Shown in pieces: positions 48,271-52,466 of a stretch of DNA of 64,000 bases; position 1 is the stretch's first letter, and each line of letters opens with the position of its first letter. Origin of the DNA: Vicinamibacteria bacterium (lineage in GTDB: Bacteria; Acidobacteriota; Vicinamibacteria; Marinacidobacterales; Marinacidobacteraceae); assembly GCA_964291235.2 (NCBI GenBank), contig OZ219815.1, positions 1,248,001-1,312,000 on the forward strand. Reading direction: 5' to 3'. Position numbers and translations under genes: made by a program. A model generated the notes under the pieces. It was given only the letters and a program-made list of their open reading frames with translations. It was not told where the DNA came from and did not search any database.

Positions 48271-51129
48271 TTGAAGAAGTACGACCGTTTCCTGACACGC
48301 GACTACCTGATGGCCGCGCTCCACCGCGCCCTCCGGGACAAGAAGCTCGGATCGAAGCTCCTGAGCTGGATCGGGTCGAGCGACGACGAACTCGAGACGA
48401 TGGATGCCGGATTCCTGACGGTGAAATTCCGGGAGTTGGGTCTCGACGACGGAGATGAAGGCGAACCCGGCTTCGGCTTCGGAGGCCGCCGGAGGCGCCC
48501 CGGTCGCCGGCGCCGAACCGGCGACAGCCCGGCGCCTGCGAGCGCACGGGCAAAGGAGTTCCTGGCCTGGGCGGTCGACGCCGTTGAGCAGTCCGTTGCC
48601 GAGCCGCCTGCCGAAGGGGCCGAGGCGCGCGCAACGGCGCTGGCGGTGCGCCGCTTCCAGCTCGACGGAGCGTGCGGTCGGCTGTTGGAACTCGCGCGCC
48701 TCTACGACGACCGCAAATCGCCCGCGGAGGAGCTCTGGGACACCGTGAAGGACGCCCTCGGCGATCCTCTGGAGGCGAGCGCGGTGCTGCTCGGCACTGC
48801 GCGATCACGCGTCGAACGATCGTTGCGCAAACTGACCGAAGTCGGGATCGCCGATGCGGACAACTGGAGCAGGAACGGAGCCGAACCCGCCAGCTACGTG
48901 GAGGGCTGGTTCGATTGCGTCTATCGCCCTCCGGTCGCCGACGAAGGGGAACTCCGCGAGCGCCTGGTCCCCCTGGCCCCGGAGCCGCTCCTGGAGATTG
49001 AAGCCTTCGATCACCTCGACGCCCGGGAGGACGCGATTCGCCTGCTCGCGGCCGCGACCCGGTCGGGAGAGAGCGTCCGCCTGCTCTTCTATGGCAGGGC
49101 CGGAACGGGCAAGACCGAAGCTGCGAAGACGCTTGTCCGCGCTGCTGGGGGCCGCCTCTACGACCTTTGCGAACCCGAATCCGGCGGTATCTGGGGGGAG
49201 GAGCGCACGGACCGCCGGATGGACCGCTCGGCGGACAAGCGGAACCGCCTGCGGATGGCGTTGGCGCTGCTCAGGAGCGAGCCCGGGGCGGCCGTCCTCT
49301 GTGACGAGGTGGAAGACGTGTTGTCGTCCAGCGACGGCAGCCGTCGGGAAAACCACAGTCTTCTGGAGGGTGCCGCGGTTCCCATCGTGTTTACCGGCAA
49401 CGATCTCTCCCGGTTCGACGAGGCGGTGCTGCGGCGTTTCGACTTGGCCATTCACTTCAAGGCCCACAGCCCGACCCGCCGCCGCTCGGTGGTGCGCCGG
49501 ATGCTGGACAATTCGGGCCTCGAGACCGTCGAGGCGGAAGCGGTGGAATCTCTTGCGATGCGGCTTGCCGACGAACTGGAGTGTCCTCCGGGGATCATCG
49601 AACGAGCGATCCGCTCGGCCCGTCTGATTCAGGGCTCTCCGGACGACGTCTTCCGGTTCGCCGAGCGTCACGAGCGAACCATCTCGACGCACATTCCGCG
49701 CCCACGCCTCGGGGCGCCGGTAACGGCGGAACTGCCTTGGGAAGCGTTCGGTCACCTCGACGAGCGCGCCGAGGACTTCCGGCAGTTCTTCAGGGCGGCG
49801 CTGTGCGCACGCCGGGACGGACGCGCCGAAAGCAGGGGCATTACGTTCCTGGCCTACGGCCCCCCCGGCTGCGGCAAGACGGAGTTCTGCCGGACGGCGG
49901 CCGCCGAAGCCGGGGCAACCCTCTATTCCGTGGGAAATCAGGAACTCGGGCCCGAGTCGCGCCGCCCGGTGTCCCGCCGTACGAGTCTGGAGTACGCGAT
50001 CGAAGCACTCACGGACGAACCAAACGCGGTGATCCTCTTCGACGAGTTGGAGGACTTCGTCTTCTCCAGCGACAGCCCGCCCAAACACTGGATGAACAAC
50101 CTGGCGGAGGAGTCGCCGGTGCCCATCCTGTTCACGGCCAACTCGATCCGGGCTTTGCGCGAGCATCTGCCGTACCTTCTGGACCGGATGACGTACTCGC
50201 TGGAGTTCCGCGATCTTCCACGGGGCAATCGAGCCGCTATTTTCCGTACTCTGCTGCGCGCGAACGAGTCAGCCGACATGGCGTCTCTGGCCGAGGAGCT
50301 GGCGGCTGACCCCCGCGTCACTCCGCGCCAGGTCCGGGACGCCGGTCTGGTGGCCGTTTTGTCGGGGAGAGGCCCCGACGCTGCCAGGCGAGCCCAGCGG
50401 GAGAAGGCTCAGCTTCTCCGGGGAAAGGGCATGGCCGAAGCGAAGGCGGCGGAGAAGTACGACTTCTCTCTGGTCCACGCCGACCCGGATCTCGCCGCGT
50501 TGACAGACCGGATCGTGAGGATCGGTCGCCGCCGGATGGGGATCCTTCTCGACGGCCCGTCCGGGAGCGGGAAATCCGAGTACGCGAAGCAACTCGCGAA
50601 GCGGATGGACCTCGATCTCCTGACGAAGCGCGCGTCGGACTTGATGAGCAAGTGGGTCGGGGAGACCGAGCAGCAGATCGCCGGCGCCTTCGCCGAGGCC
50701 CGAGCGACGGACAGCTTCCTGATCATCGACGAGGCGGACTCGTTCCTCACCGACCGCCGTGACGCGCAGCGGAGTTGGGAGACCTCCATGGTGAACGAGA
50801 TGCTGAGCCACCTCGAAAACCACGACCTTCCCTACGCCTTCTCAACCAATTTCGCGGACCGGTTGGACCCGGCGGTCGCCCGGCGTTTCCTCTTCCGGGC
50901 GACCTTCAAGTTCCTGGACGAGCCTCGCGTTGTCCGCGCCTGGGAGTTCTTCTTCGGGGGTGAATGTCCGGAGCAAGTGCGAAACCTCACTCGTCTCGTG
51001 CCCGCGGACTTCGCCCTCGTTTGTGAGCGCGCCGAGAAGCTCGGCTTCCTCAACAATCCCGATCAGATCGCCTCGGAACTTGTCTCCCAGTCCCGCGACC
51101 AGAACCGCACCCGTGCGGTCGGCTTCTGA
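48271..51129 (+). CDS. AAA+ ATPase with three tandem AAA modules
   Basis: RBS AAGGAG; Walker A GRAGTGKT, GPPGCGKT, GPSGSGKS; Walker B LCDEVE, LFDELE, IIDEAD; pore loop SKWVGETE; C-terminal AVGF. Confidence 0.92.
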   Translation: MKKYDRFLTRDYLMAALHRALRDKKLGSKLLSWIGSSDDELETMDAGFLTVKFRELGLDDGDEGEPGFGFGGRRRRPGRRRRTGDSPAPASARAKEFLAWAVDAVEQSVAEPPAEGAEARATALAVRRFQLDGACGRLLELARLYDDRKSPAEELWDTVKDALGDPLEASAVLLGTARSRVERSLRKLTEVGIADADNWSRNGAEPASYVEGWFDCVYRPPVADEGELRERLVPLAPEPLLEIEAFDHLDAREDAIRLLAAATRSGESVRLLFYGRAGTGKTEAAKTLVRAAGGRLYDLCEPESGGIWGEERTDRRMDRSADKRNRLRMALALLRSEPGAAVLCDEVEDVLSSSDGSRRENHSLLEGAAVPIVFTGNDLSRFDEAVLRRFDLAIHFKAHSPTRRRSVVRRMLDNSGLETVEAEAVESLAMRLADELECPPGIIERAIRSARLIQGSPDDVFRFAERHERTISTHIPRPRLGAPVTAELPWEAFGHLDERAEDFRQFFRAALCARRDGRAESRGITFLAYGPPGCGKTEFCRTAAAEAGATLYSVGNQELGPESRRPVSRRTSLEYAIEALTDEPNAVILFDELEDFVFSSDSPPKHWMNNLAEESPVPILFTANSIRALREHLPYLLDRMTYSLEFRDLPRGNRAAIFRTLLRANESADMASLAEELAADPRVTPRQVRDAGLVAVLSGRGPDAARRAQREKAQLLRGKGMAEAKAAEKYDFSLVHADPDLAALTDRIVRIGRRRMGILLDGPSGSGKSEYAKQLAKRMDLDLLTKRASDLMSKWVGETEQQIAGAFAEARATDSFLIIDEADSFLTDRRDAQRSWETSMVNEMLSHLENHDLPYAFSTNFADRLDPAVARRFLFRATFKFLDEPRVVRAWEFFFGGECPEQVRNLTRLVPADFALVCERAEKLGFLNNPDQIASELVSQSRDQNRTRAVGF

Positions 51130-51169
51130 CGGAGAGAAGGACGCCGGCCGGCGCACAGGCCCGGGAGCC

Positions 51170-51205
51170 CCCACCGGGAGAACCGGGCCGGCCTCCAGGC
51201 CGGCG
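51170..51205 (+). repeat. Left 36-bp imperfect direct repeat containing a REP-like hairpin
   Basis: cccaccgggagaaccgggccggcctccaggccggcg, 30/36 identical to 51922-51957. Confidence 0.65.
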
Positions 51206-51257
51206 CAGCCCCGCAAAGCGCGGCGAACCCACGCCCTCAGCCAGAACTTGGTCTAAC

Positions 51258-51329
51258 TTGACCATGGCTCTCGGTGTTTGACCGCGGCTCGCGGGTTTGA
51301 CCATGGCTCCCAGGCTTTGACCATGGCTC
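51258..51329 (+). repeat. Direct-repeat array A (4 units, iteron-like)
   Basis: TTGACC(AT/GC)GGCTC units at 51258, 51278, 51297, 51317 (spacing 20, 19, 20). Confidence 0.9.
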
Positions 51330-51549
51330 GCGGGCGCCTCCCGGGTCTGGGACCGCGGTCTCTCCGAATTGCCGATCTTCCAATCGAAATCCGGAAGAAG
51401 ACCGCCGGAATGGCCGAATCCATGCCGCAAGAGGCCGGTTTTGGGCCGGAAACAACCGATCCCGCCGAGAAACCCGCGAAATCCCGATTTCGGGGTGGAA
51501 ACGCCCAAATGCGGCAATTGACCACGCCTTCACGGTCCATATCGACGAA

Positions 51550-51621
51550 ATGACCATGGTTCTCGACGTTTGACCATGGTTCTCGATGTTTGACCATGGC
51601 TCTCCTGTTTGACCATGGCTC
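51550..51621 (+). repeat. Direct-repeat array B (4 units, iteron-like)
   Basis: (A/T)TGACCATGGYTC units at 51550, 51570, 51590, 51609 (spacing 20, 20, 19). Confidence 0.9.
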
Positions 51622-51921
51622 AGGAAGAGGCGGTCTTGAAGAGCCAGGGAACGTCGGTCTTGATTGAGACCGGTGCTGCAAATCGCTGCCGCGGCAAAAG
51701 CGCGGGTACGGCTTGGAGCGCTGTCGAGAAACGGATCACCGATCTCATCACAACCTTGGACTCCGCTTAGGTCTTGGCTGGCGGCGGCGTGTGCCGGCAA
51801 GGACCGCAGCACATCGGAGGTTTATGTTCCGGTACCCCCTTTGTGGGCCACTGGTCGTGAAGGTGATCGAGCAGGCGTACTGTCCGGGGGATTGGGTACA
51901 CGGTTCCGCGTGTTGTGGCCT

Positions 51922-51957
51922 CCCACCGGGAGGACGGGGCCGACCTGGAGGTCGGCG
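51922..51957 (+). repeat. Right 36-bp imperfect direct repeat containing a REP-like hairpin
   Basis: cccaccgggaggacggggccgacctggaggtcggcg. Confidence 0.65.
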
Positions 51958-51977
51958 GTCCCTTCCCTGACGAGCTT

Positions 51978-52466
51978 CTAGGGTTCGTCGAGTTCTGCCG
52001 CCGCGAGGCCGACCTGGACGATCCGCCGCTGATCCACCCCGGCGACGCCGACGTACTTGAAGACGGCGCCATCGAGCACGCGAGGTGCGGCGGCTTGCAC
52101 CACGACGGCCTGTTCGCCGGTCAGCAACGCCGCGAACGGGGCCGCCCGCGAATCCGCAGCGGGATCGGTAGGGAACGCGAAATCCACGCCATCCACGTTC
52201 GTGAACGCGATCTCGCCGTTCTCGTCGCTTACCCAGAACTCCGAGACGATGGTTTCATCCGCGACGCGCTTCAGGACGGCGTTGATCGCTTCCCGGTCCA
52301 TCCCGGCCTTGAGCGCGGCGTCCACGAAGTGGGCAGTGAGCGTCGCCTCAGCCACCATGTGTTTCGAGACGGCGTCATGCGCCGCCGGCTGCTGCGTTCC
52401 CATCGCTACACCTCCCAAGAGAGCAAGGGCCGCCACCGAGGCGGTCGTCCATCGCAACGTTCTCAT
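51978..52466 (-). CDS. Exported stand-alone Cache/PDC-like domain protein
   Basis: Signal peptide; EFWVSDENGEI..TN and FKYVGVAG...IVQVG typical of Cache-like sensor domains. Confidence 0.6.
   Translation of the reverse strand: MRTLRWTTASVAALALLGGVAMGTQQPAAHDAVSKHMVAEATLTAHFVDAALKAGMDREAINAVLKRVADETIVSEFWVSDENGEIAFTNVDGVDFAFPTDPAADSRAAPFAALLTGEQAVVVQAAAPRVLDGAVFKYVGVAGVDQRRIVQVGLAAAELDEP

Follow-up and report, generated by a model that had tools for sequence, protein, structure and literature searches.

Eight co-oriented units flank a spacer downstream of a triple-AAA ATPase gene

The window analysed here is a 64-kb stretch (G000:C1:1248001-1312000) of the 3.45-Mb genome G000, which is held in two contigs. 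Just past a triple-AAA ATPase gene it carries an intergenic element, locus A, in which eight (T)TTGACCATGGYTC units lie on the same strand in two blocks of four around a spacer (Table 1). A scan of the window with TTGACCATGGYTC (≤ 2 mismatches, both strands) gave 12 matches, eight of them being the locus A units on the + strand; shuffled windows gave 1.68 ± 1.32 matches with a maximum of 5, and 12 or more were reached in 0 of 100 shuffles. The eight unit starts that had been read from the letters alone are thus borne out far above the shuffled level, as are the distance of 59 bp from first to last start in each block and the single substitution of CCGCGG for CCATGG, in the unit at 51278. The original prediction had also listed outlier sites at 51351 and 51518; both are present and belong to the design of the element as degenerate inner units. 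GACCGCGGTC begins at 51351, inside the degenerate unit 51349-51361; an equivalent, TGACCGGAG-like block occurs in the other copies of the genus, and an invariant GA is kept within it in 12/12 aligned genus copies. The inner-right unit is the canonical TTGACCATGGCTT in the genome's own copies B, C and D. The unit at 51550, the first of the right array, begins ATG.

Table 1. Features of locus A (positions in the window) and the copies of the element in genome G000 with adjoining genes (positions in contigs C1 and C2)
Feature	Position	Strand	Details
Triple-AAA ATPase gene	48271-51129	+	adjoins locus A
Left array	51258..51329	+	4 units, starts 51258/51278/51297/51317; CCGCGG replaces CCATGG in second unit
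Inner-left degenerate unit	51349..51361	+	GGGACCGCGGTCT; 32 bp past last left unit
Spacer core	51362..51517	.	non-coding; 82% conserved relative to G001 orthologue; 10.0-bp period
Inner-right unit	51518..51530	+	TTGACCACGCCTT; 3 mismatches; 32 bp ahead of right array
Right array	51550..51621	+	4 units, starts 51550/51570/51590/51609
Copy A (window element)	C1:1299258-1299621	+	neighbours: triple-AAA ATPase and weak DSBA-like gene
Copy B	C2:700990-701401	-	neighbours: BNR/sortilin protein and LD-carboxypeptidase
Copy C	C2:1293119-1293514	-	neighbours: PQQ_2 proteins
Copy D	C2:1702025-1702368	+	neighbour: gene X directly upstream
Gene X	C2:1702403-1703290		295 aa
561-aa gene	C2:1700238-1701923	-	downstream of copy D

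A check for assembly artefact had been proposed along with the prediction. Four public runs, made on three samples of one study, yielded contigs covering 30/30 bins of 51130-51980. In each run one contig spans the whole left array with 0 differences, and the right array is tiled by overlapping contigs, no single one of which bridges it; the presence of orthologous copies in independently assembled MAGs is a further argument against an artefact. Three linked single-base variants in the spacer (window 51474, 51502 and 51532) recur in the contigs of every run at roughly one third of the depth, which suggests a co-existing strain allele. The intergenic region is itself flanked on both sides, at window 51170-51205 and 51922-51957, by a REP-like hairpin element (CCCACCGGGAG... 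with a GC-rich stem) whose 11-mer is found at 130 places in the genome; over 51159-51216 the summed contig depth was 10-100x that of the flanks in each of the four runs. Elsewhere, a complete rRNA operon (window 22879-28275; 16S, tRNA-Ile, tRNA-Ala, 23S and 5S) forms the low-GC stretch of the window.

The element is one of four dispersed copies with a stereotyped design

Across genome G000 there were 37 motif matches (≤ 1 mismatch) compared with 2 for a reversed control, and these clustered at four loci (Table 1). All units of a copy are co-oriented; the left array holds 2-6 units and the right array 4-6, separated by a gap of ~190-220 bp, and the flanks are unrelated between copies. The predicted chromosomal intergenic site is therefore not unique, being one of four dispersed copies.

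The proposed search of related genomes for clusters of the motif located the element in six related Vicinamibacteria MAGs. The paired-unit pattern was found in 7/41 relatives, with G000 counted: in 6/24 other genomes of the taxonomic family and in 0/16 from the two remaining families of the order. In a set of 185,579 species genomes it picked out 28 stretches; 25 come from six MAG records with Vicinamibacteria, Candidatus Marinacidobacterium or Acidobacteria as title, and three are single matches in unrelated MAGs. Viral contigs did not contain the pattern, and a comparison of the element with 72,556 plasmids gave no match.

The loci fetched from relatives (23) and the genome's own copies made up a set of 28 elements. 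The whole element is ~400 bp long, its left and right arrays being separated by a spacer of ~190-220 bp. In the 176 units of the set, information is confined to 13-14 positions, (T)TTGACCATGGCTC, with ≤ 0.3 bit outside them, so that each core is sharp-edged and the linkers are variable. Steps within arrays are 18-22 bp in 82/91 cases and all units are co-oriented; a longer step of 31-32 bp after the inner-right unit was recorded in 10/23 elements. With 13-bp cores and 5-9-bp linkers the element is not a CRISPR array, which needs 23-50-bp repeats with unique spacers of similar length as well as a match to a repeat model. The sole Rfam match, to CRISPR-DR9 at 13.9 bits (gathering score 45), falls on the flanking hairpin at 51188-51203 and was judged to be chance. 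In an alignment of the four G000 copies we found no terminal inverted repeats, hairpin modules, conserved ends or target-site duplications, only direct arrays whose outer units abut unrelated sequence. What the element does share with mobile repeats is its multi-copy nature and insertion polymorphism, with four loci in its own genome and variable occupancy of loci A and B.

Cores and spacer are conserved between species and linkers drift

Locus A is orthologous in G000, G001 and G013, in each case downstream of the triple-AAA ATPase gene. Between G000 and G001 the ATPase has 76% protein identity, and 0.50 identity at 417 four-fold sites. Over the same pair, the unit cores of locus A are identical at 104/117 positions (0.89) and the spacer at 154/188 (0.82), whereas the linkers reach only 25/59 (0.42), the 5' flank 0.49 and the 3' flanks 0.42 and 0.40. 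Locus D, compared with G008 and G013, gave the same ranking (cores 0.76-0.90, spacer 0.70, linkers 0.51-0.56, flanks 0.16-0.40), and units have been both gained and lost there between species. To judge from these alignments, cores and spacer are under purifying selection and the linkers are unconstrained. This combination is unlike a minisatellite born by slippage or the decaying relic of a mobile element; a genome-wide minisatellite of variable spacing had been named by the original prediction as its counter-reading.

The spacer is non-coding and has a 10.0-bp period

That the region might encode a conserved repetitive protein had likewise been considered. Mismatches between the G000 spacer and its orthologue are spread evenly over the three codon phases (12/10/10), several spacer copies have stops in most frames, and a 53-aa ORF past the right array is not kept in G001; protein coding was rejected on these grounds. 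A conserved RNA family or structure was rejected as well: an Rfam search of the element gave no family up to E 10 besides the 13.9-bit chance match, and RNAalifold on 12 copies (238 columns) gave -6.9 and -12.0 kcal/mol with positive, i.e. penalising, covariation terms on both strands. Adjacent units spell TTGACC-N17-GACCAT, a weak sigma-70-like pattern; a consensus scan of 51000-52100 returned 0 promoters and 0 terminators, and both were dropped as candidates.

In the spacer, CCGG-type words (CCGGAA) alternate with A/T-rich words (GAATTCG) at a best period of 10.0 bp. The periodicity score was 0.272 for 24 spacers and 0.252 for the 12 that are non-orthologous, compared with 0.010 ± 0.011 and a maximum of 0.044 in random genome windows (300 sets). 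An A/T alternation of about 10 bp is a signature of intrinsically curved or wrappable duplex DNA, and the periodicity therefore suggests that the spacer is curved or bendable.

Neighbouring genes and occupancy

Pfam scans of the neighbours of the four own loci found no Rep, Par (ParA/ParM/ParB) or integrase families, in agreement with the prediction that no recognisable Rep, ParB or integrase lies nearby, and no transposase or integrase was found at any own locus. A common neighbour gene was sought among the 28 elements and rejected, as they show synteny only, with no shared family except X at D-type loci. By crude ORF calls, the element lies past a gene 3' end, its units reading GARCCATGGTCAA in the direction of the gene, in 11/14 locus groups; the same crude calls place about half of the sites between convergent genes, which is weak evidence. 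Occupancy is patchy: locus A is filled in 3/10 genomes with the ATPase orthologue and locus B in 2/16 genomes with the carboxypeptidase orthologue, being empty even in the motif-bearing G013, G008, G004 and G001.

Features of a replication origin were also looked for. No DnaA box (TTATCCACA-like, ≤ 1 mismatch) was found in 4/4 own copies, and the lowest GC in any of their 40-bp windows is 0.42-0.47, which speaks for the absence of an AT-rich unwinding region. The dnaA gene is at C1:940920 and coincides with the GC-skew minimum. Orientation relative to the fork is alike in 6/8 copies of G020; own copy A differs.

Two observations concern the genes beside locus A and copy D. In G002, G005, G006 and G008, the ATPase gene is followed directly by a paralogue (54-64%) of the 561-aa gene, and in G000 the ATPase gene and the 561-aa gene each adjoin an element (Table 1); the two are a possible gene pair. 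The last AAA domain of the ATPase shows a likeness to the IetA/IteA anti-phage ATPase that stays far short of the cut-off (97 versus 510 bits).

A winged-helix gene, X, adjoins copy D, and its relatives adjoin arrays of their own

Copy D begins about 40-80 bp past the stop codon of gene X, which lies immediately upstream; own copies A, B and C lack a neighbouring X gene. An X orthologue followed by an element of the same design was found in G008, in G013, in G020 (another genus) and in one metagenome contig. Three further genomes combine an X orthologue and the bipartite design with changed cores: G009 with CAATGG/CTCTGG forms, G016 (a third genus) with AGCTGGGGRAAYA, and G041 with another form in 2-3 units. 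In G016 the AGCTGGGGRAAYA motif stands at five bipartite loci, one home and four orphan, and the orphan copies of G009 likewise carry the home motif variants.

The X family is present in 20/28 genomes of the taxonomic family, with 1-11 matching stretches each, not all of them full-length; G000 has three copies. A first set comprised 16 X-family loci: 13 were next to a clear array, 1 to a weak one, 1 lay at a contig end and 1 had none; in a second set of 18, 16 had an adjacent array, each with its own motif, the exceptions being a contig-end locus and a C-terminal-only match, and both counts overstate independence because the genomes are kin. Among control loci, arrays were seen at 4/30 (138 kb), two of which are this element at locus A and the other two a small 4-copy repeat, which leaves 2/28 when the two known copies of the element are not counted. 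The X-family arrays are of two kinds, either 31-33-bp repeats upstream of the gene in up to 62 units or 20-22-bp repeats of bipartite form. No ParA, ParM or ParB families were found beside the X paralogues, and a metagenome scan for further X loci yielded only four.

Some genomes keep elements although their D-type X looks damaged or missing. The gene is split across two frames in G013; in G001 it is interrupted by ~2.2 kb and carries a TGA; and in G004 it was not found with this query, the best match there (44%, confined to the C-terminal domain) being to a different paralogue. A duplicated copy of the element in G002 bears a 35-residue remnant of the end of the X gene, which suggests how orphan copies arise.

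An AF2 model of X has long helices at residues 39-107 and 111-155, a disordered stretch at 153-208 and a confident C-terminal winged helix (pLDDT 89-97). A set of 5.8 billion proteins held 35 homologues, all unnamed, and 43 cluster representatives came up in a profile search at E ≤ 1e-30; there was no match to X in 72,556 plasmids or 50,697 phage records. Foldseek likened the winged helix weakly to ArsR/MarR-type DNA-binding domains (best E 0.04, none ≤ 0.001), the best match of the sequence to PDB chains was at E 0.054, and the D-locus X reached no Pfam family at threshold (best HTH_5, E 0.045). For the Pfam family Fic-like_C (PF21247, cut-off 27 bits), an own X paralogue scored 35.8 bits, the G009 orthologue 20.3 bits, below the cut-off, and the D-locus X gave no match; the atlas neighbours of X are Fic-like_C clusters, at 0.82-0.83. 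A complex prediction for two N-terminal parts (residues 25-155) gave no support for their association and carries no weight either way.

A second repeat family, with 32-bp units containing AGCTCCGGTCGATA, forms arrays of 6-35 units at C1:438273-438440, C1:438968-440090 and C2:423216-424213, with further repeats near C1:1062295-1062615 (-) and C2:1475400-1476100 (-); steps of 21 and 32 bp alternate at the start of the C2 array. The C1 arrays are found ~150 bp upstream of one X paralogue of G000 and flank a small cassette, one ORF of which is a HicA toxin (Pfam, 38.1 bits). At the D-type loci of G008 and G020 (L042 and L028) X is preceded by a 939-957-aa ORF, by eye a putative MmeI-like type IIL restriction-modification N-terminus, which is fragmented in G013 and absent at the G000 D locus. 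An ORF between the G008 arrays was read by eye as ParD-like; this was dropped for want of Pfam confirmation in the two ORFs tested.

Locus A as a putative docking platform for X

We propose, at a rough probability of 55%, that locus A would be a docking platform of arrayed sites for X, a lineage-specific candidate binder. The C-terminal winged helix of X would read one unit, and adjacent protomers would be linked through its N-terminal helical hairpin; a curved spacer would, we propose, allow the two X-coated arrays to double back onto one another in the manner of iteron handcuffing or ParR-parC. The outcome would be a compact looped complex at four chromosomal sites. As to its role, our guess is that it structures or anchors the chromosome, or forms a barrier at gene ends; we think replication or partition less likely. 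X as the binder, the looping and any cellular role are our inferences, and the link to X comes from adjacency and co-variation among relatives that are not independent. More doubtful is the wider possibility that the Vicinamibacteria of this family carry undescribed, orthogonal X-array pairs, in which each full-length X (helical hairpin, disordered linker and winged helix) would have a satellite-like array of its own beside it and some would have orphan arrays as well; together the pairs may constitute a chromatin-, anchor- or centromere-like layer with locus A as one trans-acting site.

The protein-assembly site put forward in the original prediction is thus retained as the best-supported reading, given the site-like cores, the selection on cores and spacer, the 10-bp periodicity of the spacer and a candidate winged-helix protein; its plasmid parallels hold for form only. 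It is unlikely that the arrays bind a different protein of the host (a transcription factor or nucleoid-associated protein, say), with the adjacency of X reflecting shared history. Selection and site-like units do not name the binder, and the persistence of elements in G001, G013 and G004 despite a D-type X that is broken or was not found would suit another protein; such a binder would, however, leave unexplained why X paralogues have their own, differing adjacent motifs (13/16 and 16/18 loci) and why home and orphan motifs have changed jointly in G016 and G009.

We also regard it as unlikely that the element is a selfish, non-autonomous dispersed repeat of MITE, REP or BOX type that does nothing for the cell. 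The existence of several copies whose flanks are unrelated, a patchy distribution (7/41 relatives including G000), loci A and B that are filled in only part of the genomes, the duplicated G002 copy with its 35-residue X-end remnant and a position mostly at gene 3' ends (11/14 locus groups, by crude ORF calls) are all as expected of such a repeat, and a mobile or decaying element would show patchy occupancy and varying unit number likewise. It would nevertheless have to lack terminal inverted repeats, conserved ends and target duplications, and to have kept cores (0.89) and spacer (0.82), though not linkers or flanks, at near-saturated neutral divergence. Gene conversion would homogenise linkers and spacers too, yet between copies these differ; and there is no transposase or integrase at the own loci, nor any copy in the viral contigs or plasmids searched.

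An iteron-type replication origin or the partition centromere of an integrated plasmid-like element is improbable. The likeness to plasmid iterons and R1 parC that the prediction had drawn holds for form, with two blocks of direct repeats about two helical turns apart and the gene of a specific winged-helix protein adjoining one copy. It does not extend further: no Rep, ParA, ParM or ParB is found among the neighbours, the four copies sit between housekeeping genes with no DnaA box in any of the four and no AT-rich unwinding region, and neither element nor X matched 72,556 plasmids, nor X 50,697 phage records. The model of X, moreover, predicts one winged helix and a helical hairpin rather than a two-winged-helix Rep fold. 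Together these absences argue for an iteron-like form that is not a plasmid origin or centromere. It is highly improbable that the element acts as RNA (a structured small RNA, 3'-UTR or protein-sponge RNA), for although it is mostly found past a gene, in a single orientation, and its minus strand folds better than shuffles (z = -4.08), such a fold score is expected because the cores are palindromic, no Rfam family or favourable RNAalifold covariation term was found on either strand, and the 10.0-bp periodicity is a property of duplex DNA.

The docking platform compared with known systems

Plasmid iterons are bound by Rep initiators such as F RepE, P1 RepA and pPS10 RepA. Like the units described here, they are co-oriented direct repeats of ~13-22 bp with a spacing of roughly two helical turns, frequently grouped in two clusters, and their motif is particular to a single winged-helix protein encoded next to them (here, candidate X). 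Their clusters can pair by handcuffing; pairing in the present element is our proposal. Plasmid iteron systems have been reviewed (PMC4980987). The present element differs in having four chromosomal copies between housekeeping genes, in a binder that is predicted not to have the Rep fold, and in being without a DnaA box, an AT-rich region or a plasmid match. At R1 parC, which is bound by ParR, and at type Ib/II centromeres, repeat blocks are coated cooperatively by a small protein to give a bent or ring-like complex. R1 parC likewise has two blocks of phased direct repeats, but in our case there is no ParM/ParA motor gene, the copies are dispersed, the candidate binder is a winged helix and not a ribbon-helix-helix protein, and the gap is ~200 bp of putatively curved DNA and not a short promoter gap.

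Streptomyces BldC is reported to bind direct repeats head-to-tail, in numbers that vary, at many sites on the chromosome (PMC5859096). An asymmetric X would similarly multimerise head-to-tail on co-oriented repeats, the number of which varies by chromosomal site. BldC is a 68-residue MerR-like protein acting at promoters, and X is of another family; the sites described here are also bipartite, with a periodic spacer, and about half of them lie between convergent genes.

Site-plus-tether systems (RacA-ram, Noc-NBS and ParB-parS) form a further group. They too have few chromosomal sites and a DNA-binding domain joined by a flexible linker to a long helical or oligomerising part; their sites, however, are single palindromes rather than bipartite arrays. 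By analogy, the head-to-tail multimerisation of BldC and the tethers RacA-ram or Noc-NBS may be the nearest functional parallels to the docking platform. The REP/BIME, BOX and MITE repeats are comparably modular, multi-copy and intergenic, and vary between relatives in module number and presence, but the present element has no inverted termini or hairpin modules, and its 13-bp cores are under selection while its linkers drift. In literature searches the core motif matched primers only and nothing appeared under the genus name; searches on iteron-like chromosomal direct repeats with a winged helix returned known plasmid, RctB, BldC and RdfS work only.

Were X to bind the arrays, it would represent a new sequence-specific winged-helix family with many naturally orthogonal array partners in one genome, and so raw material for chromosome-locus tagging tools. 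It would also give a view of chromosome organisation or insulation in an uncultured, abundant marine acidobacterial lineage, and iteron-like architecture would not be diagnostic of plasmid origins or centromeres.

Other repeats and palindromes

Further repeats were noted in the genomes compared. In G009:C1:679704-692001, canonical TTGACCATGGCT sites recur every 300 bp (681760, 682060, 682360), and this stretch may be a 300-bp tandem repeat; the bipartite elements of G009, unlike these sites, use variant cores. In G000, five copies of a ~22-bp tandem unit containing CGTGACCGGAGTACACGTCCAG lie at C2:1337068-1337175, and four copies of a 13-bp tandem unit containing CAGATCAGCCCAA lie just past a gene end at C2:63800-63870. 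Restriction-site avoidance was considered for the palindrome CCATGG and rejected, with 976 occurrences observed in the genome versus 1180 expected. CCTAGG is strongly avoided (43 observed versus ~1180 expected from base composition), which may point to a restriction system, and GGATCC is over-represented (2424).
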